This document shows, one piece after another, positions 4,594 through 37,803 of a stretch of DNA of 52,947 bases. Numbering within the stretch: position 1 is the first letter of the stretch; each line of letters opens with the position of its first letter. The stretch comes from a virus (taxonomy: Duplodnaviria; Caudoviricetes): IMG/VR virus record IMGVR_UViG_3300025759_000132, positions 1-52,947 of that record; one strand, given 5' to 3'. The notes under the pieces were generated by a model. It saw only the letters and a program-made list of their open reading frames with translations, did not search any database and was not told the DNA's origin. A program made the position numbers and the translations under genes.

Positions 4594-5648
4594 TATTTAA
4601 ATTTTTCTGCTAATAATGTTGTTGCCATTTTACCTTTTTCTACATAATTTCTTACTGTAAGACCTATTTTTTGCCCTTTACTGTTGACTCGATTCCCCTC
4701 TAACTTTACTCTTAATTCTAATAAAGCATTTTTTTTATTTGACGTAGTTTCTATTATTTGTATTTTTGGTATTTTTGCACCAGAAATAACATTCGTAGAA
4801 CCTTCAGTATATACTGTTCCTAATTTCACCCCAGTTAATTTATTCTTTATATTTTCAAACTTATATATAGTGCTTTCGCTTTTGTTAAGTTGTACTAATG
4901 CAACATCTGGTTCATTTCTTGTAGCATGATACTTCATAAAATTAGCAATATTTTTTTTTAAAGTTTCTTGCGGCAAAGACGATATTTGTTTGTTTGCTTC
5001 TTTATAAGCAACAATTAATGCGCCAGCTACGTTTTTTTCTTCGCTTAATAACTTATTATATTTTGTCTCAATATTATTTGAAAATTTTACACCTAATGGT
5101 TCAAAAAGAGATTTCATAGAAGCAAAAGAACTTCCACCCACTTGGCCAAATTGTTTCACGTCCTGAGCTTTTAAACTAATTCCAACACCTGCTTGTTTCC
5201 CATCAATTATAAGATACAAATCAACTTTTGTTCCAGTTTGGTCTAAAAGACCTTCTGATTTAATTTCTATAACATTTTTTTGATTGTTGTTGTACATCAT
5301 ATCTGCCCATTCCATAACATTTACGCTATTTGAATATGCAATAGATGCATTAACTAGTTCTACAACATCTCTTTGAGAGTAAATTGAAGTATCTAAGAAT
5401 GCTCGGATATTAACTTCTGCTAAATTTACTTTACATATAACCGTATCTAATATTTTTGGATTTGCGTTTGGCGAATCAAACTCAGTTAAAGAAGTTAACC
5501 CACTGGTTTCTTTGACCGGCGGTTTTAATTTTTTAACAACATTAATTACATCATTAAACTGTATTCTTTTTGTTTTTGATAAAAATCTAGCAGTCATTGC
5601 CGCTGCTAAAATGCCTTCAGAAACATCGCCTCTATTAAATTTGGCCAT
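4593..5648 (-). CDS. Putative PD-(D/E)xK-fold endonuclease (possible free-standing homing endonuclease)
   Basis: 351 aa; TKVDL..GISLK motif; visibly more AT-rich than flanks; own late promoter. Confidence 0.5.
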   Translation of the reverse strand: MAKFNRGDVSEGILAAAMTARFLSKTKRIQFNDVINVVKKLKPPVKETSGLTSLTEFDSPNANPKILDTVICKVNLAEVNIRAFLDTSIYSQRDVVELVNASIAYSNSVNVMEWADMMYNNNQKNVIEIKSEGLLDQTGTKVDLYLIIDGKQAGVGISLKAQDVKQFGQVGGSSFASMKSLFEPLGVKFSNNIETKYNKLLSEEKNVAGALIVAYKEANKQISSLPQETLKKNIANFMKYHATRNEPDVALVQLNKSESTIYKFENIKNKLTGVKLGTVYTEGSTNVISGAKIPKIQIIETTSNKKNALLELRVKLEGNRVNSKGQKIGLTVRNYVEKGKMATTLLAEKFK

Positions 5649-6759: not shown

Positions 6760-7011
6760 TTATTCGTCATCCCAATCATAGAGTCCAGAGTCTAAAAGAT
6801 GTTTAGTCATCTTCTTAGTTAGTAGAGAATAATCTACGCTATCGATACCCCAGTATCCAGCGTCTATATGACCACATCGCCATGATTCATTCATCATCGT
6901 GCCAGAACGATACGGCGATTTTGACCCGGTACCATGATCACACAACATATCATAGACACCTTTTGAATATGCAGTACGCAGTCTAACACTCATCGCGATT
7001 TCATCTCTCAT
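6760..7011 (-). CDS. Hypothetical protein (83 aa)
   Basis: Start trimmed to MRDEIA, directly after the stop of the upstream ORF. Confidence 0.55.
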   Translation of the reverse strand: MRDEIAMSVRLRTAYSKGVYDMLCDHGTGSKSPYRSGTMMNESWRCGHIDAGYWGIDSVDYSLLTKKMTKHLLDSGLYDWDDE

Positions 7012-9016: not shown

Positions 9017-9296
9017 TATAGTCAGCAGCCTCCGTAATCAATTCAGTAAGAATGTCGCCAAGAGTATTTTCAAAATCTTTTTGATCTTGTTCAGATAAAT
9101 TATCAGTATCTAATCCACCAGGAGTTTCTACAATATCATAATCAAATTGTAGAATAGCATCATCGCCATCGTCTTCAAGAAAACGAACAGCGCCATACTT
9201 ATAGATTATATCTTTAAACTTACCTTTTGTCAATCTAATTTTGGCAACTTCACTAGTATTACCTTCATCGAATAGAACTTCATACATCTTGTTCAT
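8934..9296 (-). CDS. Conserved hypothetical protein between uvsX and gp41
   Basis: Acidic ORF overlapping both neighbours; start trimmed to MNKMYEV; occupies the position of T4 gp40 but homology not evident. Confidence 0.6.
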   Translation of the reverse strand: MNKMYEVLFDEGNTSEVAKIRLTKGKFKDIIYKYGAVRFLEDDGDDAILQFDYDIVETPGGLDTDNLSEQDQKDFENTLGDILTELITEAADYNENRTNDTDKSDLQRGLHKTSNSVSKD

Positions 9297-29147: not shown

Positions 29148-29298
29148 TTACCGAATCTCCTTTCCTTAAAAAATTAAACTCGTAAATATCAATACTACCT
29201 GTATTATATGCTCTTTGGATCAACGAATCAATAGATTTTTGATCTAATTTTTCTATATCTTCATCAATAGATTTACAAAAAAATCTAAACGACATCAT
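29140..29298 (-). CDS. Small passenger ORF of HNH cassette; supplies SD for gp47
   Basis: MMSFRFFCK..; its end contains AAGGAG and overlaps the gp47 ATG. Confidence 0.5.
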   Translation of the reverse strand: MMSFRFFCKSIDEDIEKLDQKSIDSLIQRAYNTGSIDIYEFNFLRKGDSVND

Positions 29299-29995
29299 TG
29301 CTTTTTGGTACTGGTCCATTCTTACCAATCCTTGATTCTGGGTCAATACCATTCAAGTAGTATTTTTTATATAAACCTTTTGATACACCAGTGGCTTTTT
29401 GTAATTCACTCCATCCAATATAAACAGCGCCTTTGTATTCTAATCTTTTGGAATGTTTTAACTTGAATGCTTGACCGCCTTTACTTGCTCTCTTTATTTG
29501 TTCATCATAATACTTATTTGGGTCTTCTTTTTTTCTTTTTGATTGAGATTCACTAAAGATTTTACTTGTTTTTTTTCTACGTTCATCGTTATCTTCCCAA
29601 TGCCCAGTAACAATATCGCTTAATTTTTGCCGATATTTTAAATCTTTATTTCTTTCTGGATGGAACACGTTTTTAAGAAACTTTGAGTGTTTTTTTCTAT
29701 TATGTTCATACGCTCTTGAAGTTGAAGTTCTACTAAACACCATACGATGTAATGCCCAAGACATTTTAATCAAATCATTTTTTGATTGTACCATTTTTGT
29801 TAAAAGAAGGTGGACAATATAATGTTCCTTTGAGGTTAACAATACAAGGTTTTCAACATCATTAGATCCACCCAAACTTTTAGGTATGATATGGTGTGAT
29901 TCAAAGTATCCATCTTTTTTACTACGATTTAATTTTTTTGCATTTTCTATAATAGCATAGTACCAATTGGTATACTTGTTTTTCTTATAAGTCAT
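29285..29995 (-). mobile_element. Free-standing HNH homing endonuclease (Mob-like)
   Basis: ESHHIIPKSLGGSNDVENLVLLTSKEHYIVH; AT-rich; late promoter at 30028-30035. Confidence 0.88.
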
Positions 29996-30060
29996 TACTT
30001 ACTCCAATGTTACTTTGGTCTCAGTATTATTTATAAGAAATGGGTTTTACATCGCTGCTT

Positions 30061-30615
30061 TCATTTAATTTCTTCCATAAAAACATCTACTGGTTTAATA
30101 CCAATCTTTTTCTGTTTTAGTTTTTCTTCAAAGTCTTCAATAAAGGTATCAATGTGATCTCTTGACCATTCGTTAGATTTAGAATTTTTAATAGGCGGTG
30201 AGTCATGGTTTTGTATATCAAATCCTCCTTCACCTACCAATAAATGATCACCATATTTGTACTTAGTGTATAGATGCTTCTTCTCTTTCGCAATCCTACG
30301 TAAATATGCGTAGTAAATAATCTGTGTAAAATATGCAAATGGATTTTGTGACTTCTCTGGATTAAAATTATGCATATATGTCAAACTATTTTCAATACCA
30401 TCCGAAATCATTTCTTCTTTAAATGGATAGTTAATAAAGTTTGGTTTATGTGATAGATTAACAGCAATCTTCATAATACACTCACCAATATAAATTGACA
30501 CTTGTGGTTTTTCTTTTCCTTCTTTCTCAGCCTGTTCATATTGTTTTTTATATTCACACATTGCTTCAAAAAAATCTTTATTATTCACATAGTGTTTACT
30601 TTTTTTCTTTGCCAT
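30061..30615 (-). CDS. gp55: Late-transcription sigma factor
   Basis: HYVNNKDF, IGECIMKIA, EMISDGIEN, NPFAYFTQIIYYAYLRRI. Confidence 0.96.
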   Translation of the reverse strand: MAKKKSKHYVNNKDFFEAMCEYKKQYEQAEKEGKEKPQVSIYIGECIMKIAVNLSHKPNFINYPFKEEMISDGIENSLTYMHNFNPEKSQNPFAYFTQIIYYAYLRRIAKEKKHLYTKYKYGDHLLVGEGGFDIQNHDSPPIKNSKSNEWSRDHIDTFIEDFEEKLKQKKIGIKPVDVFMEEIK

Positions 30616-30985: not shown

Positions 30986-32473
30986 TTATAGTTTTATATT
31001 GTACAGTTTATATTCAAACTCTTCTTCATTATATATTTTAACTCTTTCACTGAAATGAGTCAATGTATAATTCACTTTTGTTTTGTATCGGAGATCGTCG
31101 GCGATGTCGAAGAGAGTCGCCCTATCTTTTGCATCACCCTTACGTAGCCCTCTACCAATAGACTGCAGATTACGTATACGAGACTTAGAGGGAGAAGCAA
31201 AAATAATATTATGAAGATTGCGTATATTAATCCCAGTACTGAAGGTACCGTACGACGCAATGATAATGGCGTTGCTTTCATTCTCAGTAATTTCCCTGAT
31301 TTTTTCGCGAGTCGATGCATCGGTTCCTCCATAAACGAAAAAAACCTTTCTATCATCTTCAACTGCTTTTGAAATAGATTCATATAATATTTTCCCATGT
31401 TTTTCTACAAATTGAAATAACAAAAGAGTATTACCATTAAGTGATAATGTAAGATTTTGAATGAACTTATTACGTTTTGGATTGCTTACGATGAAGTCCA
31501 TCTCATCCTGATACTTCATCTTACTTACAAGTTTCTTATCTTCATCAGAGTGTTTCAGTACAAGGCACTTGATTCTAAAGTTAGCAAGATGGTCCTGCTC
31601 AATCAACTCTTTTGTTTTGACAAACTGTTTAACCTTACCAAACAATCCTTCAAGAACTAACTTGTGAGTTTGTGTACCATCAAGTGTACCAGTAAATCCA
31701 AATCGATACTTACATCCAATCAATTTTGTCATAATAGAAGTAAGTGACTTTGCTTTAAATAGATGGCACTCATCACCAATGACAACTTCATATTGAGCAA
31801 AATAATCTTTGCGAAGTTTATACAGTGACTGCCATGTAGAAATAACAATCGGACAATCTGATTGTTTTTCTTGACCAGACATAACAATGTGAATATCATC
31901 TTCGTGCATTCCGTATTCAATAAAATCAGAACGCATTTGATAGACAAGTGATGTAGTTGGTACAATGATTAGAGTTTTTGATTTATAGTATTGAACAAGA
32001 AGCCAGATAATAAATGACTTACCAGAAGCCGTAGGTGATACAAGTAGACCACGATTATTACGAACGAGATGAGTGAAACTATCAACCTGATAATCTCTTG
32101 CCTCAAACTTTGTATTGAGACTATCGATGAATTCATTTGCTTCTTTTAAAGAAAAACTATTCTGTACTTCTACATTTTCAGCAAGTTCAATTTCATAGTC
32201 ACGTTCATTTGCAAAATGTTCAACATAAGGTAATAGACCAAGATATAGTTCTTTTTTACCAGAGTCGAATAAATATATTTTGCCTGACCACATACGATTA
32301 CGATACGTTGGCATAAACTTATAACCAGGTACGTAAAATGAAAAGAATTCCGATAATTCCTGACGAATGGAATTATCAGATTCAATTTTCATATAGACTT
32401 CGTTCACTTTAGTAATAATCAATTTATCCGACTCTATATTATTTTCTGGCAGAAACTGTGGTGGGAATGTCAT
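30986..32473 (-). CDS. uvsW: SF2 helicase UvsW
   Basis: SPTASGKS, DECH, GFTGT, QSIGRGLR. Confidence 0.96.
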   Translation of the reverse strand: MTFPPQFLPENNIESDKLIITKVNEVYMKIESDNSIRQELSEFFSFYVPGYKFMPTYRNRMWSGKIYLFDSGKKELYLGLLPYVEHFANERDYEIELAENVEVQNSFSLKEANEFIDSLNTKFEARDYQVDSFTHLVRNNRGLLVSPTASGKSFIIWLLVQYYKSKTLIIVPTTSLVYQMRSDFIEYGMHEDDIHIVMSGQEKQSDCPIVISTWQSLYKLRKDYFAQYEVVIGDECHLFKAKSLTSIMTKLIGCKYRFGFTGTLDGTQTHKLVLEGLFGKVKQFVKTKELIEQDHLANFRIKCLVLKHSDEDKKLVSKMKYQDEMDFIVSNPKRNKFIQNLTLSLNGNTLLLFQFVEKHGKILYESISKAVEDDRKVFFVYGGTDASTREKIREITENESNAIIIASYGTFSTGINIRNLHNIIFASPSKSRIRNLQSIGRGLRKGDAKDRATLFDIADDLRYKTKVNYTLTHFSERVKIYNEEEFEYKLYNIKL

Positions 32474-32990
32474 TTTTTCTCATTCTTGTTCTTCCCCATC
32501 CTCTATCACTACTCAACCAAGGCTTTACTCGTTTAACTCTCTCTGATCTATTTTTCGAATCTCGTAAAGCTGCTTGACGTATTTTTTCTTTCACTTCAGG
32601 GCGTTTTGTTGGATTCTTATCACCTAGCATGCCTCCTCCGGCATGATTTCTATGATCCATCCTACCTTCATCCCAAGCCTTTTTTATTGCTAGTCCTCTT
32701 TTTTCACGATCAGCTCTGGAACCAAACTCTTTTTGTTTTTCTGGATCATTAAAAACACAATTACTTCTACCTTTCCTCCATCCTTCTGGTATTGGATCTT
32801 CTCTTTCGACAAATCTATTTATTTCGCCATTTGTGATCCATTTTTTTGGACCAGCATTGTGGACCGGAGCAATTCCTGGTACTCCGATTTGGATATTCTC
32901 GGATAATTTTTGATCGGAAATTTCTGGAATGCGACATTCTTCTAAGTCGAATATACGTTCCATATTCTCTTGTAATATATAAGTATACAT
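32439..32990 (-). CDS. Homing-endonuclease-related DNA-binding protein without a recognisable nuclease domain
   Basis: WITNG..IPEGWRKGR and NPTKRPEVKEKIRQAALR modules; no HNH or GIY-YIG motif seen. Confidence 0.6.
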   Translation of the reverse strand: MYTYILQENMERIFDLEECRIPEISDQKLSENIQIGVPGIAPVHNAGPKKWITNGEINRFVEREDPIPEGWRKGRSNCVFNDPEKQKEFGSRADREKRGLAIKKAWDEGRMDHRNHAGGGMLGDKNPTKRPEVKEKIRQAALRDSKNRSERVKRVKPWLSSDRGWGRTRMRKNDIPTTVSARK

Positions 32991-33060
32991 GCTGATACCT
33001 CCGTATTAGGTGTTAGAGTCAGTGGATGCGCCAACATCGCGACTGACATTATTATTTATA
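32991..33060 (-). ncRNA. Late promoter plus conserved structured 5' leader (copy 1)
   Basis: TATAAATA-N5-GTCAGT-CGC-GATG..CATC-C-ACTGAC-TCTAA..GGAG..CAGC-ATG. Confidence 0.6.
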
Positions 33061-33153
33061 ATGTCCTGAACTTTACGATGAATAATATTTTCATCATAAA
33101 TTCCATGAGAAGATAATATCTCCTTTACTGTTTCATATATTTCCCAATAACGT

Positions 33154-33624
33154 TTATTGTCCATTCGTAAACTGTAAAAATTTTATAGAATTTGAAATCA
33201 CAAACCCACGAGTGTTAATACTTTTTAGAATCTCTTCAAGCACATCTACCATTTCTTGTTGATATGCTATCTTTGTATTTATTTGTACCATATCCTCGTC
33301 ACTTTCAACGTAATATGATACCTCTTGTTTTAATCTTTTATGGGGATATGGTTCACGACCAATCTCTGCTAAATCTTCAGGATTGTTTAGATCACCACGA
33401 TAGTAATCCATTAGCCGTTGATGCAAATGTTTCTGCTTCATCTTCAAAGCACGGAGTTTTAATCTCTCTTCTGAGAAATATCGTAAATACTTACTATGAA
33501 GAAGTGGAATGTTTAAACTTTCACGAGATAGTTCAGTTTCATCAATCTTACTATCTTCTTGCCACATAGATATAATACCATCAATCTTCATTAATATACC
33601 TTTCAAATGATTAAAACTATTCAT
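33154..33624 (-). CDS. uvsY: Recombination mediator UvsY
   Basis: WQEDSKID, IPLLHSKY, YYRG, INTRGFVISNSI; start possibly 33591; sigma70-type promoter at 33643-33670. Confidence 0.9.
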   Translation of the reverse strand: MNSFNHLKGILMKIDGIISMWQEDSKIDETELSRESLNIPLLHSKYLRYFSEERLKLRALKMKQKHLHQRLMDYYRGDLNNPEDLAEIGREPYPHKRLKQEVSYYVESDEDMVQINTKIAYQQEMVDVLEEILKSINTRGFVISNSIKFLQFTNGQ

Positions 33625-33676
33625 AAAAGCGCTACAAGCACTATTATAACGTAGTTTTTAAAAATGTCAATAGATT

Positions 33677-34213
33677 TTATAGATTTTCTACAGTGAACTG
33701 ACGATATCGGAAAACCACTTCGGCTTCTAGATATTCAACATCAGATTGTGTAACATCAAACGAAAGTGGTGATAATGATAGAGGGAACATATCTTCAAAA
33801 GCGATACGAATCTTTGGATTGTTATTAGAAGAAAGAATCAAAATCGATCCATCAGAATAAACACCAGTACCCTGTTTTAGATCACGATATTGTTTTAGAT
33901 CGTTTGGATGACCAATACCAACAAGCCAGTCATGAATCTCAAGATAGTTAGTCATATTCTCATCAACACGAAATCTTAACATAAATGGTTCGTATGTGAT
34001 TCTATCACCTGGTCGTGGAATCTGTGCTAATGGATTTGGTTGTAAAATCTCTTGAACAGAGATAGTTGGCAGTGTAGCAGACTGACAAAAGTATTCTACA
34101 TTAGGAGCACGATTTAACTGAAATCGAAATCCTAATGGTGATAAGAAATTGATATTCTGTGTAAGAGGTGACTCTTCTAAAATATTCACACCAGTTTTTG
34201 GAATCAATGCCAT
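33677..34213 (-). CDS. gp3: Tail completion/sheath stabiliser (gp3-like)
   Basis: NFLSPLGFRF, YFCQSATLP, FRVDENMTNYLEIHDW, FEDMFPLSLS. Confidence 0.8.
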   Translation of the reverse strand: MALIPKTGVNILEESPLTQNINFLSPLGFRFQLNRAPNVEYFCQSATLPTISVQEILQPNPLAQIPRPGDRITYEPFMLRFRVDENMTNYLEIHDWLVGIGHPNDLKQYRDLKQGTGVYSDGSILILSSNNNPKIRIAFEDMFPLSLSPLSFDVTQSDVEYLEAEVVFRYRQFTVENL

Positions 34214-34452
34214 GTCGTATCCTTTATCAAATCTGCAAATCTATAATCATTCTTCTCGCCATAACTTACATTAACTTCTTTGATTACTGCTTCAATATTA
34301 TTTTTCCAATAATTTAAAAAGTTATGAACCTTTGGCAACTCAGGCGTAATATCTTTCGTCTGCCAAACGAACTCCTGAATGATGTCAGAATAATCTGGCA
34401 TGTAATATAATACATCAACGGTGACTATGTGTTTACGTATCCATATTCCCAT
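34204..34452 (-). CDS. Usg-like protein
   Basis: VLYYMPDY..IQEFVWQTKDITPELP..FLNYW; late promoter at 34458-34465. Confidence 0.75.
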   Translation of the reverse strand: MGIWIRKHIVTVDVLYYMPDYSDIIQEFVWQTKDITPELPKVHNFLNYWKNNIEAVIKEVNVSYGEKNDYRFADLIKDTTWH

Positions 34453-34581
34453 AACATTATTTATAAAACTTCATGTAATGACTGATAAGATTAGTCATCA
34501 AACCACTACAAAGACATTTATAAGAGTATTTCTAAAAACGACTAATCTTCGCCAAAAAAAATCAAAAAAACTGTCTGTTAT

Positions 34582-34658
34582 TATAAATAAAAGTGTCGGT
34601 CACGAGATGTGGCGTCTCTACCGACTCTAAGGAATAAAAACAGGGAGTATCCTCAGCT
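34582..34658 (+). ncRNA. Late promoter plus conserved structured 5' leader (copy 2)
   Basis: TATAAATA-N5-GTCGGT-CAC-GAGATG..CGTCTC-T-ACCGAC-TCTAA..GGAG..CAGC-T-ATG. Confidence 0.6.
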
Positions 34659-35219
34659 ATGGATATTTATTTACACAAACATCATATAGTTCCACGTCAT
34701 GCAGGTGGAACAGATGAACCAGAAAATCTCGTAGAACTTACTATTCTTGACCATGCAATTGCTCACCGTGCATTATGGAAGATGTATGGTCGATGGCAGG
34801 ATAAGATTGCTTGGCAGATGCTGAGTGGTCAAATTGATAACTATGAAGCACAACAAGAAGCAAGACGGTTGGCTAACTTGGGTAAAAAACTTTCCGAAGA
34901 ACACAAACAAAAAATTAGTAAAAGTAAGAAGAACCCAACAAAAAAAACTCGTGAAAAAATGAGCAAATCGAAAATGGGAAATCAACACCGTGTTGGACAT
35001 AAACATTCATATGAAACTAAAGAAATATGTCGACAAGCTGCGTTAAACCAGACTAATCATAATAGTGGTGGTTATACATTATCTGATGAATTTAAAGATA
35101 AATGTCGTCAAAGAATGCTGACAGATAATCCTGCCAAGAGACCTGAAGTGCGTGAAAAACTTCGTCAGGCAGCATTACGCAGAGAACAAAAAAAGAGGGG
35201 AGCCGAAGCTCCCCTCTAA
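34659..35219 (+). mobile_element. Free-standing HNH homing endonuclease with NUMOD3 repeats, antisense to all neighbours
   Basis: HKHHIVPRHAGGTDEPENLVELTILDHAIAH; KKLSEEHKQKIS. Confidence 0.88.
35188..35217 (-). terminator. Terminator after gp23
   Basis: AGAGGGGAGC-TTCG-GCTCCCCTCT followed by T run. Confidence 0.9.
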
Positions 35220-35242
35220 GTCTAACAACTTTATTGTTATTC

Positions 35243-36616
35243 TTACATTAAGTTGTCGATTTTGATTAGACGATAATATATATTTTTCTTAGCGAAAGCA
35301 ATCGCACCGTCTGCAGCAGTTGTAGCGAATGGGTTAGCAACCATCCCATAACGCGTCTTAAATCCGATTTTGGGTTGGAAGGTATTCTCACCAACTGCAC
35401 GAACCATCTGTAGTGGAACGTATGGGCAATAGAAGAGACCGGCGTCAAATGCGCTTGAACCCTTATAACCCATTGTGGCATACTGTGAACCAGAACCACT
35501 GGCGAAGTATGGATCAACATAAACCTTGATGCGACCATTCATGACACCAGCGAAGGTGTTGCCTGTATCGTCAACGTTTAGGTTGTTGCTGAGAGCAGGT
35601 GTGTAATCTAGAACACCAGCCATCTGAAGTGCGGAAGCAACATCAGAGGAAGTGATTAGAACGTTACCCTTGCCGCGACGAGTTGCTTTGGCAATGGCGT
35701 TTGCTTCACGCTCTAGTTGGAAGATTAGACCCTTGAAGCGTTCAACACTCCAACGACCGTTGGCGTCAACGTCTAGGTCGAAGGTACCGGAAACAGCAGT
35801 GTTTTCTGTTGCACCAGCGGTAGCAGTGTAGTTGATTGTACGAACAACTTCGCGGTTGATTTCAGCAAGAATCTCAGCGGAGAGAATATTGCTGAGTTCT
35901 GTTTCAGCGTCAAGACCATGGATTGCTTTAAGGTCTTGTGCTAGTTCCATTGTGTACTCAGCTTTGAGTGCACGTGACTTAGCAGTAACAGAAACCTTCT
36001 CGATTGAGAAAGCCATTTCTGAGAAGCTGTTGTTATCGGTATCACCAAGAGCTTCAGCAGTGCTTGTTGACATACCCTGGGAAACTGTATAACCAGAACC
36101 AGAAGCACGAGCAGTTGGATCAGCACCAGCTGTTGGTACACCAGCAGAATCAACACCAGTTGAAGCAACACCACCAACAGAGTTGTTAGCAGTTGCTGAG
36201 AAGCTGGATACTGCTTCGTTGTATAGAGCTTCGTCGCCACCCTGTGTAGCGTACTGAGGACGCATCGCAAAGATGAGACCAGTTGGACCAGTCATTGGCT
36301 GGACGCCGGCAACATCATAAGCGATTAGGTTTGGCATGGAACGACGGACGAGAGAGATAAGGACTGGATCGAAGATTTCGATTGGACCTGTACCCTGTGA
36401 GTCAGAAGCGCCAAATGCGTTTGTTGGAGCAGCTTCGCCGAGTAGGCTTGGCGCTTGATAACCACCAGAACCGTAAGCAGCTTCACGTGAAGCCTTCTCT
36501 TGGTTTTCTAGTAGAGTTGCTGTGACGGCACGACGATGAGGATCCTTAATACCTTCTAGGTCTGGATGCTCAAGGACTGGCTGCCACTTCTTGTTTAGTT
36601 CTTCAGATAGAAACAT
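35243..36616 (-). CDS. gp23: Major capsid protein
   Basis: FDPVLISLVRR, GVQPMTGPTGLIFAMR, SRALKAEYTMELAQDLKAIHGLDAE, FYCPYVPLQMVR; late promoter 36656-36663. Confidence 0.98.
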   Translation of the reverse strand: MFLSEELNKKWQPVLEHPDLEGIKDPHRRAVTATLLENQEKASREAAYGSGGYQAPSLLGEAAPTNAFGASDSQGTGPIEIFDPVLISLVRRSMPNLIAYDVAGVQPMTGPTGLIFAMRPQYATQGGDEALYNEAVSSFSATANNSVGGVASTGVDSAGVPTAGADPTARASGSGYTVSQGMSTSTAEALGDTDNNSFSEMAFSIEKVSVTAKSRALKAEYTMELAQDLKAIHGLDAETELSNILSAEILAEINREVVRTINYTATAGATENTAVSGTFDLDVDANGRWSVERFKGLIFQLEREANAIAKATRRGKGNVLITSSDVASALQMAGVLDYTPALSNNLNVDDTGNTFAGVMNGRIKVYVDPYFASGSGSQYATMGYKGSSAFDAGLFYCPYVPLQMVRAVGENTFQPKIGFKTRYGMVANPFATTAADGAIAFAKKNIYYRLIKIDNLM

Positions 36617-36669: not shown

Positions 36670-37803
36670 TTACTTTTTAGCAGACTTTGAAATGGCATTC
36701 ATGTATACTGCCATAGCACCTGTTGGACCCGAAACCTCTTCTTCAAGAGAAATAGGATCGTTCTCATCATCGACAACAACCGAAACGGTTTCTTCATCAA
36801 TATCAAAATATTGCGACTTTAACATATCAATTTTCTTTGAAAAGTCTTCTTCGGAAACGAAGTCGATGCCTTCAGCAAGGCCACGAAGTTTTTCAACTTG
36901 TGTATCTGAAAGATCGCCTGTCTTTTCTGCGAAGACAGTTTCTTTTTCAAAATCTTTAACTTTGCCGAGTAGTTCAACGTTCTTGTCAGTCTCTTCATTG
37001 AGTTTACCTTCAAGTTCGTCAACTTTGGCGATTAGTTCTTCAACTACGTCAACTTTTTCTTCTGGGATGTCAACATAGTGCTCTTCGAATAGACCCTTCA
37101 TACCTTTGAGGAAGGACTCAACCATATCGGCTTTAACACCGTTTTCGATGGCGAGTTTGTTTTCTTGGACCCATTCTTGAACAACGTAATCGAGATACTC
37201 ATCAACCTTTTCTGTAAGTTCTTCTGTTAATTGTGTAGAAGTAACTTCTAGATCAGATTCGCTTTCGATAGCAAATTTCTCGACAATTTCGTTAACTTTT
37301 GAAACAACTGCAGCTTCAAAAACTGTTTGAATCTTTTCTTGTGCTTCTTCAGTTAGATCGGCACCCTTGAACATTGCTGTCATATCTTCTGAAAGATCAA
37401 TGTCTTCTGCAGAAATTTTAGCAAGTGGTTTGTACTCGATGGCATCTTCTTCGATGACTTCATCATCAAACTCAACTTCTTCACCATGCATCTTTTTGTA
37501 CATAGCTTGAAGATCAGTTTTTTTCATCTTAGCCATCTCGCCATACATTGCATTGATCATACCAGCTTTTGTTTTCATTTCTGCTGGTTTTGGTTGCTTG
37601 CGTTTAACAGCAGTTGTAGCACTGTCTTCTACATCATGACCAGCTTTGGCACCTTTAGTAACTGCACCTTTGCCAGATTTTGCAACAGGCTCTGGAACTT
37701 CAGAAGGATCACCCATTGAAGCCTTGAACTCTAAAAGATCCTCATCTTCAGGAGTCTCAATGACATCAACGTCCTCCATTACTTCTAAGTCTTGTTCGGA
37801 CAT
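36670..37803 (-). CDS. gp22: Prohead core scaffold protein
   Basis: Acidic coiled coil; YLDYVVQEWVQENKLAIENG, LFEEHYVDIPEEK; late promoter 37844-37851. Confidence 0.92.
   Translation of the reverse strand: MSEQDLEVMEDVDVIETPEDEDLLEFKASMGDPSEVPEPVAKSGKGAVTKGAKAGHDVEDSATTAVKRKQPKPAEMKTKAGMINAMYGEMAKMKKTDLQAMYKKMHGEEVEFDDEVIEEDAIEYKPLAKISAEDIDLSEDMTAMFKGADLTEEAQEKIQTVFEAAVVSKVNEIVEKFAIESESDLEVTSTQLTEELTEKVDEYLDYVVQEWVQENKLAIENGVKADMVESFLKGMKGLFEEHYVDIPEEKVDVVEELIAKVDELEGKLNEETDKNVELLGKVKDFEKETVFAEKTGDLSDTQVEKLRGLAEGIDFVSEEDFSKKIDMLKSQYFDIDEETVSVVVDDENDPISLEEEVSGPTGAMAVYMNAISKSAKK

Follow-up and report, generated by a model that had tools for sequence, protein, structure and literature searches.

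The window analysed here is the whole of a 52,947-nt stretch, IMG/VR record IMGVR_UViG_3300025759_000132, which is a 52.9-kb fragment of an uncultured T4-like phage (completeness estimate 29%). At two sites in it, A and B, the octamer TATAAATA is followed by a leader of one common layout and then by the start codon of a gene, a unit that we call the cassette (Table 1). TATAAATA is the T4 late-promoter octamer and occurs 17 times in the window, against 4.5 expected. Each leader opens with a hairpin, P1, and continues through UCUAA, a linker containing GGAG, and CAGC to the AUG; every sequence feature that a preliminary description of this DNA had listed for the two sites is present where it had been placed. 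That description had assigned both downstream genes to homing endonucleases. This holds for gene B, an HNH and NUMOD3 homing endonuclease gene (HEG), whereas neither Pfam nor PHROG matches the product of gene A, in which no nuclease domain is recognisable; it starts with MYTY and has a NUMOD3-like C-terminal stretch in common with gene B. The site A and B hairpins alone fold better than shuffled sequences (z -2.6 and -2.5), and the window's other late leaders are short and A/U-rich, with no structure. A third HNH gene (29285-29995, minus strand), which contains ESHHIIPKSLGGSNDVENLVLL, has a plain unstructured leader behind its promoter TATAAATA (30028-30035, minus strand) and no cassette, so the cassette leader is special, yet not universal among endonuclease genes.

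Table 1. Features of the two cassette copies, in window coordinates. Primes mark hairpins of the antisense strand.
Feature	Position	Strand	Details
Site A forward T4-type late promoter box TATAAATA	33053-33060	-	5 nt ahead of the leader's first G
Site A hairpin P1 (mRNA) / P1′ (antisense)	33018-33047	-	GUCAGU CGC GAUG-UUGGCG-CAUC C ACUGAC
Site A UCUAA, linker with GGAG, CAGC	32991-33017	-	UCUAA 33017-33013; CAGC 32994-32991
Site A reverse late-promoter-like box TATAAGTA	32978-32985	+	Codons 2-4 of gene A (AUG UAU ACU UAU)
Site A predicted cis-antisense RNA	32991-33060	+	~57 nt structure, U-rich tail AUUAUUAUUUAUA; transcript and ends predicted
Gene A, 183 aa	32439-32990	-	AUG at 32990
Site B forward late promoter box TATAAATA	34582-34589	+	5 nt ahead of G 34595
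Site B hairpin P1/P1′	34595-34625	+	GUCGGU CAC GAGAUG-UGG-CGUCUC U ACCGAC
Site B UCUAA (34626-34630), linker with GGGAG, CAGC (34654-34657), U	34626-34658	+	Antisense strand forms P2′
Site B reverse late-promoter-like box AATAAATA	34664-34671	-	Codons 2-4 (GAU AUU UAU U)
Site B predicted cis-antisense RNA	34582-34658	-	Tail ACUUUUAUUUAUA; transcript predicted
Gene B, 186 aa, HNH + NUMOD3 homing endonuclease	34659-35219	+	Opposite strand to adjacent late genes

Viral contigs were scanned with three patterns, and each conserved feature was examined in a sample not selected for that feature. Scan 1, derived from both window copies (TATAAATA-N4-6-GTC-N20-34-GACTCTAA), returned 108 viral stretches, with the full P1 signature in 101 of 117 matches. 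Scan 2 used the 3′ part alone (GGAG-N3-CAGC-N0-3-ATG-NNT-AYT-TAT) and gave at least 155 unique sequences; its figures cover the matches listed, among which 116 have a strict P1 and the others a variant P1 recognisable by eye, except in contigs L136, L201 and L208. Scan 3 left both cassette ends unconstrained and gave 85 unique sequences among the matches listed. A covariance model based on 61 distinct sequences, the check that the preliminary description had proposed, does find a family: it scores sites A and B at 71.8 and 57.8 bits (E = 5e-22 and 2.5e-17), and finds just these two copies in the window. The next match (6835-6894, E = 0.15), which lies inside a minus-strand open reading frame (ORF) with no plus-strand gene, was rejected as noise. 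The model made 112 hits in contigs L005-L104, including copies unseen by the pattern, and 114 in L127-L226. Long contigs hold one to five copies and a complete 160.8-kb genome holds three; together, the three scans and the model yield at least ~190 distinct versions, all of them located where free-standing genes of homing-endonuclease type begin (5′ end) in T4-like phages. Judged from these sequence comparisons, the cassette is a widespread, previously undescribed element of ~80 bases in T4-like phages. The earlier proposal of a conserved, covarying structured RNA is borne out by the recurrence of this layout across hundreds of viral contigs, each helix showing compensatory changes. The conserved stretch reaches exactly as far as the forward and reverse boxes of Table 1. 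CAGC is kept in 60 of the 61 sequences of the first sample, and among the scan 2 matches listed C8 and C10 are each kept in 109 of 110 and CUA in all 110.

In 596 Gb of prokaryote genomes the scan 1 pattern matched 77 stretches, of which one is genuine (L308, a 16-kb contig of a metagenome-assembled genome) and the others arose by chance, so that this search doubles as a specificity control. Caulobacter phage Cr30 is the sole cultured carrier found, with a 44.4-bit copy (KF301602.1, 136.9-137.05 kb) upstream of an annotated homing endonuclease. A blastn search with the high-scoring natural leader of L030 found Cr30 only, and blastn of both window leaders against cultured phages returned the late-promoter octamer only. 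With the covariance model, Stenotrophomonas phage DLP_6, Pelagibacter phage Mosig, Melnitz-1 and S-SCSM1 had no match, and T4 had sub-threshold ones only (E 0.04-0.1). Rfam 15 has nothing overlapping either leader at E ≤ 10 across window positions 32000-36000, and nothing at E ≤ 1 on the leaders of five other loci (L030, L053, L172, L113 and L025), in agreement with the earlier view that this is no named family; the leader is undescribed in the full-text literature searched, supplements aside. Contig L025 carries four cassette copies in 5.75 kb, an unusually dense endonuclease gene cluster.

The genes behind the cassette confirm that it travels with homing endonucleases but not, as had been supposed, with one family of them. 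In 132 distinct complete downstream proteins, PHROG homing endonuclease phrog_314 is found in 79 and phrog_655 in 53, and Pfam identifies NUMOD3 in 53, HNH in 18, HNH_3 in 13, SegE_GIY-YIG in 11, HNH_5 in 8, GIY-YIG in 3 and a TnsA-like domain in 2. The cassette is common to unrelated nuclease families: HNH, HNH_3, HNH_5, GIY-YIG/SegE and TnsA-like. The cassette-borne proteins all begin M-x-I/T-Y. Because this tag sits ahead of the true catalytic motifs of unrelated families (for example, MAIY-SKPAFRF-YVYAF... and MSIY-HTHHIVP...), it is part of the cassette and not of the enzymes. Computed over the 16 leader pairs that are at least 93% identical, protein identity is below 30% in 9; L008 (GIY-like) and L053 (HNH) have a leader identity of 1.00 and a protein identity of 0.05, and blastn of L008 against L059 shows a different ORF behind a common leader.

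At least 11 related proteins make up the family of gene A, every one of them behind a cassette leader (relatives in L005, L034, L047, L050, L056, L070, L079, L099 and L101). Their alignment shows a conserved N terminus of ~30 aa, M(S)IYTYxxSKxLCEILNTEF..PSxSDQEL, then NUMOD3-like repeats and no recognisable nuclease domain; gene A would represent either a new or a degenerate type of HEG. Cassettes also occur without a gene. L009, L019 (8806-8872, minus strand), L024, L051 and L088 have an intact leader and a 4-codon ORF (MSTI*) that abuts a convergent gene, and L017, L064 and L083 have P1 alone, without Shine–Dalgarno (SD) sequence or ATG. These solo cassettes and P1-only remnants look like scars of HEG loss.

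The covariation was computed on alignment A4, which comprises 110 distinct rows from among the scan 2 matches listed. Compensatory changes are present in 15 of 15 modelled pairs, 92.9% of the cells are paired, against 67.5% in shuffles and 27-56% with slid partners, and the column pairs that rank top by mutual information are exactly those modelled. What had been described as a 3-nt CRC bulge retains two single bulged C, and its R pairs with the opposite Y (G-C 66, A-U 16, A·C 27). P1 of site A accordingly consists of a 6-bp outer stem, this R:Y pair between the two bulged C, and a 4-bp inner stem. The UGG-containing loop noted earlier is found at sites A and B but does not hold family-wide, the loop sequence being variable. 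An alternative pairing of ACUCU with GGAG, also raised in the preliminary description, is possible, but has just 3-4 pairs and competes with the covariation-supported helix. Mutual information on A4 and the two simple hairpins yielded no extra covarying column pair, pseudoknot or junction; as no further long-range pair covaries, there is no sign of a pseudoknot.

The pairs that are not Watson–Crick on the mRNA strand point to the opposite strand. A·C or C·A cells number 98 and G·U cells 8 in A4 (53 and 1 in alignment A2), and an A·C mismatch in the mRNA is a G·U pair on the other strand. Pair 51-77, for instance, reads CA 43, UA 33, CG 15 and AU 9 on the mRNA strand, and therefore U·G, U-A, C-G and A-U on the antisense strand; this mixture would be strange in an mRNA helix but is ordinary for the opposite strand. 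Valid pairs make up 91.8% on the sense strand versus 98.6% on the antisense strand in A4, and 91.9% versus 98.8% in A2. In a MAFFT alignment of 150 distinct antisense-strand sequences, which was not fitted to the structure, a 19-pair structure is 97.2% paired (77.2% in shuffles, 30-49% with slid partners), with compensatory changes in 16 of the 19 pairs and frequent G·U, invariant at one pair.

Folding energies show the same asymmetry. The minimum free energy (MFE) is lower for the antisense strand in 189 of 192 unique leaders (mean -18.0 versus -13.2), and the gain over shuffles is -5.0 kcal/mol for antisense and -2.9 kcal/mol for sense. At site A the values are -20.0 (z -2.84; 32991-33047, plus strand) versus -15.0 (z -1.28) on the mRNA strand, and at site B -18.4 (z -1.97) versus -17.1 (z -1.39). 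Exactly two adjacent hairpins, P2′ and P1′, form in 146 of 148 antisense folds. In 143 of the 148, CUG pairs with UAG (C-G, U-A, G·U), which brings P2′ to 8-9 bp and explains the invariance of the CUA and CAG that seem single-stranded in the mRNA; at site A the antisense strand of 32991-33017 forms a 9-bp P2′ that joins CUG, the complement of CAG, to UAG, the complement of CUA. The P2′ loop has 7 nt in 110 of 150 sequences and starts with CCU in 115 of 150. The bulged C of site A P1 are G on this strand. Together with the promoter-like box in codons 2-4 described below, the non-Watson–Crick pattern and the folding energies indicate that the selected fold belongs mainly to the antisense strand.

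Codons 2-4 of the cassette genes read nnT-AYT-TAT, and the opposite strand, (N)ATAA(A/G)TA, resembles a late promoter that faces the forward TATAAATA. The resemblance is maintained at synonymous sites: T closes codon 2 in 65 of 74 genes (background 0.33), ATT encodes 43 of the 49 Ile at codon 3 (background 0.39) and TAT encodes 64 of the 64 Tyr at codon 4 (background 0.71), figures for which p-values overstate independence, as the sequences are relatives. Among the scan 3 matches listed, the bottom-strand box at -12 to -6 has the composition A70 T68 A68 A71 A61/G20 T65 A73 of 83 and is about as conserved as the forward box. In the same matches CAGC and AUG are separated by 0 nt (41), 1 nt (27) or 2 nt (14), and the forward spacing of 5 nt (42) or 4 nt (10) is mirrored by the reverse side, where 5-7 nt lie between the box and the G opposite CAGC. 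At site A the 5-nt spacer TACAT leads to G 32991, and at site B the 5-nt spacer TCCAT is followed by A 34658 and GCUG. TATAAGTA doubles as a forward box in L172, L341 and L369. The portion of PMC1524935 consulted places T4 late promoters at -13 to -6 and describes poor conservation of the T at -13 among relatives.

Variant upstream sequences occur in a minority of contigs (L141, L143, L354, L370, L379 and others), which have AGTCAAYA-N5-G upstream of P1 instead of TATAAATA, and in Cr30, in which CTAATTAAT lies upstream of the leader. The contigs with the variant box contain many NATAAATA boxes elsewhere. Both the AGTCAAYA type and the Cr30 sequence may be different promoter classes. Cr30 has TATAAATA just twice in 156 kb, and k-mer enrichment gave no candidate for its late promoter.

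On the basis of these features we propose, with about even confidence, that face-to-face late promoters yield the HEG mRNA and a cis-antisense RNA of 65-75 nt over its whole 5′ untranslated region (UTR). About 55-60 bp separate the two opposed boxes. The forward one (TATAAATA or CTAAATA, placed 4-5 nt ahead of a G) would start the HEG mRNA, the 5′ UTR of which presents P1 first and then GGAG and the AUG. The reverse box in codons 2-4 would start an antisense RNA at the G opposite the invariant CAGC; this RNA would consist of P2′ (8-9 bp, with its 7-nt loop from CCU), one linker A, the bulged P1′ (11-12 bp) and finally a U-rich stretch, complementary to the forward promoter, that would serve as terminator. 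In keeping with such a tail, at least 5 U are present in nt 3-10 past P1′ in 127 of 148 sequences. The predicted RNA spans mRNA +1 to CAGC, 0-2 nt before the AUG, and includes GGAG. Being fully complementary from +1 to just before the AUG, SD included, it would block HEG translation, trigger mRNA decay or both, with complementary 7-nt loops nucleating the pairing and convergent transcription adding interference, and a potentially self-damaging nuclease would be kept low. Firing of the reverse box, the ends of the antisense RNA and the regulatory outcome are the predicted parts of this scheme. Neither site has a sigma-70 -35/-10, and on the mRNA strand no U-run comes after P1.

Several observations weigh against the antisense model. 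The start of P1 coincides exactly with the predicted mRNA +1 and its pairing on the mRNA strand reaches 95-97%, and the excess of antisense-valid cells (117, against 101.7 +/- 7.8 in shuffles) is largely predicted by composition. In about one-fifth of copies the reverse box has G at -8 (TACTTAT), position -13 is not conserved (T29 G29 A19 C6 among the scan 3 matches listed), A is held at -12 even where the forward box is CTAAATA, and TAYTTAT is retained where the forward box differs (the AGTCAAYA type and Cr30). The U-run begins 2-3 nt past a P1′ stem that is itself bulged, and a simple terminator scan made no call at P1 on either strand of either site. Finally, two RNA runs, as contigs, which cannot show transcript ends or strand, cover 33253-34443 (core genes) and 32541-32710 (inside gene A) and neither leader.

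Several of these points would be expected if the cassette acted in the mRNA only, with P1 as a stabiliser or insulator at +1, P2 half-hiding the SD, CAGC and nnU-AUU-UAU forming an optimised portable translation-initiation region, and the likeness to a reverse promoter incidental. We regard this explanation as possible but doubtful. P1 begins 4-5 nt past the late box, at the +1 given by the promoter geometry in the consulted portion of PMC1524935; its high pairing on the mRNA strand, the plain mRNA spacing of GGAG and AUG, and the persistence of TAYTTAT beside non-canonical forward boxes all fit, and T4 HEGs are known to be under RNA-structure control at ribosome-binding sites (PMC3014915, in part). 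However, in the mRNA the commonest state of pair 51-77 is a C·A mismatch, A49·C79 is mismatched always, and sense P2 is a mere 3 bp in many copies. The sense strand also has the smaller gain over shuffles, and its SD and AUG are predicted to be only moderately accessible (0.34 and 0.41), with hardly any difference between late and read-through transcripts. If an unstructured A/U-rich start were what is needed, moreover, A would do at the synonymous sites, where T is strongly preferred. A sense role of P1 as a 5′ stabiliser may coexist with its role in the antisense RNA.

The exchange of genes behind the cassette raises the alternative that it serves at the DNA level, as a ~80-bp homology patch or single-stranded DNA hairpin for HEG ORF swapping, with the RNA fold secondary. 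It would then be a late-promoter analogue of the modules of T4-type phages known as PeSLs, for which the passages seen of PMC2839356 offer a precedent. The near-identical leaders before unrelated proteins (9 of the 16 pairs), the replaced ORF of L008 and L059 and the solo leaders that persist after ORF loss are in its favour. A homology patch needs identity, yet all helices of the cassette covary through four pair types, and its tight register with promoter, SD and AUG argues for expression control. We therefore consider a purely recombinational function improbable; recombination is probably something that the cassette offers in addition, and not what its fold is for.

The inverted promoter repeat that brackets the leader would also permit a lock of the T4 kind, in which UAUAAAUA pairs with UAUUUAU of codons 2-4 in a helix, P0, and silences transcripts started upstream. 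P0 would close a three-way junction round the SD and AUG, and late transcripts, which begin inside P0, would escape. This logic is documented for T4 gene e, I-TevI, mobE and segB in the part of PMC3014915 consulted. We think it decidedly improbable for the cassette: P0 would consist of 7-8 A-U pairs only, with an A·C mismatch in ~20% of copies (TACTTAT), 60 nt more upstream sequence lowers predicted SD/AUG accessibility just from 0.34/0.41 to 0.27/0.32, and the G·U asymmetry of P1 and P2 is left unexplained. Least probable by our estimate, and very much so, is a protein-binding operator, ribozyme or ligand switch in the mRNA leader, functions that the preliminary description had suggested: the near-invariance of the bulged C8 and C10 and of (U)CUA in a sample not constrained for them would suit it, but CUA is accounted for as a strand of the antisense helix, the two simple hairpins bring no junction, pseudoknot or extra covarying pair, Rfam has no ribozyme or riboswitch match, and the same leaders serve unrelated proteins, which makes protein-specific autoregulation through the variable parts unlikely.

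If the antisense RNA is made, it might further act in trans on all HEGs with a similar leader, giving copy-number-dependent dosage control and possible cross-silencing, with the cassette as a recombination joint. We consider this extension unlikely. Were it true, one RNA-encoding module would couple the regulation of HEGs to their mobility, dosage control would extend genome-wide in late replication, and cross-silencing would hit the HEGs of a co-infecting phage.

The two cassettes lie among recognisable phage genes. Between the sites are UvsY (33154-33624, Pfam) and a tail-tube-like gene (33677-34213, PHROG), and beyond site B the major capsid protein (35243-36616) and a scaffold-like gene (36670-37803). 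The capsid proteins of Stenotrophomonas phage DLP_6, Pelagibacter phage Mosig and Methylophilales phage Melnitz share 64-67% identity with the one encoded here. We take 30061-30615, by its sequence, to be a gp55-like sigma factor, and the large helicase-like ORF at 30986-32473 presumably stands in the place of T4 uvsW. A 52-aa ORF (33006-33164, minus strand) downstream of uvsY runs through the site A forward promoter and P1, and cassette insertion may have remodelled its C terminus. Immediately upstream of uvsY is a perfect sigma-70 consensus (TTGACA-16-TATAAT, 12/12; 33643-33670, minus strand), probably an early promoter. Weak, sub-threshold Rfam matches at 35178-35296 (minus strand; CrcZ, L20 leader and others) would fit a strong terminator hairpin that separates the capsid gene from the HNH gene convergent with it. 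Contig L053 carries a tmRNA-like gene (5129-5470, plus strand; Rfam alpha_tmRNA 88 bits, permuted tmRNA 99.6 bits) and a tRNA (9031-9101, plus strand).

Free-standing homing endonucleases are abundant in T4-like phages, and their restraint is known for a handful of genes, with one hairpin each. Here one covarying RNA module is common to HNH, GIY-YIG and other nucleases in many uncultured phages and Cr30. It adds a new RNA family for annotation and a marker for HEGs, including the domain-less 'MYTY' family, and Cr30 on the harmless host Caulobacter crescentus offers a system in which the cassette can be tested. If the antisense model is true, this would be the first family-wide antisense control of phage HEGs and a clear case of a promoter encoded in the synonymous sites of the first codons. 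The distribution of the cassette also suggests that regulatory cassettes drive HEG swapping, and extends the PeSL idea to late genes.

The closest parallel in arrangement is IS10/Tn10, in which RNA-OUT and RNA-IN arise from the face-to-face promoters pOUT and pIN. As in the antisense model, a mobile element has its nuclease-type gene countered by an antisense RNA that is small, stable and folded into a stem-loop; the antisense promoter is situated a short way into the 5′ part of the gene and points towards the gene promoter, and the overlap takes in the ribosome-binding region. The cassette differs in that both of its proposed promoters are phage late (gp55-type) boxes, the reverse one within codons 2-4, and its predicted RNA has two hairpins, covers the whole 5′ UTR, stops just before the AUG and serves many unrelated HEGs. 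Type I toxin–antitoxin pairs such as SymE/SymR similarly place a small cis-antisense RNA over the 5′ UTR and translation start of a nuclease-like protein with toxic potential; they are loci of host chromosomes, whereas the cassette is phage-borne.

In T4-like phages themselves, cyanophage S-PM2 has CfrI, an antisense RNA of ~225 nt linking a HEG to psbA (Millard et al. 2010, as cited in the consulted part of PMC2984593). CfrI likewise runs over a homing-endonuclease gene and, as far as that part describes it, sets a precedent for antisense control of phage HEGs; S-PM2 has no covariance-model match (best E 0.11), so CfrI is a separate family. T4 gene e, I-TevI, Aeh1 mobE and T4 segB have hairpins that sequester the ribosome-binding site in read-through transcripts (PMC3014915, in the sections available). 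These share with the cassette the post-transcriptional restraint of phage endonuclease genes and a late promoter beside the ribosome-binding site. From the same sections, however, their 5′ arm lies upstream of the late start and they are gene-specific, whereas the cassette is a shared covarying family in which, as the preliminary description had noted in contrasting it with I-TevI, P1 and P2 are wholly downstream of the predicted +1 and the promoter could at most form a weak helix, entirely of A-U pairs, with codons 2-4.

PeSLs of T4-type phages, as characterized in the excerpts consulted of PMC2839356 and PMC4122927, comprise sigma-70 early promoters and GGGG/CCCC terminator stems and flank ORFans. 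A repeat of ~67 nt in L008 (3656-3721, 5323-5390 and 5872-5939; also in L059), the opposite strand of which reads TTGACA-N17-TATGAT, SD and a start, is a PeSL-like early-promoter cassette, with one copy immediately upstream of an HEG cassette. PeSLs, on the account in those excerpts, resemble the HEG cassette as repeated modules of ~100 bp that combine promoter, stem-loop, SD and ATG with variable genes and ORF replacement. The HEG cassette has the late TATAAATA or CTAAATA upstream in place of a sigma-70 early promoter with terminator stem-loop, and compared with PeSLs as described there it is set apart by late-promoter-like boxes on both strands, a covarying two-hairpin fold, four fixed codons and its specificity for HEGs.

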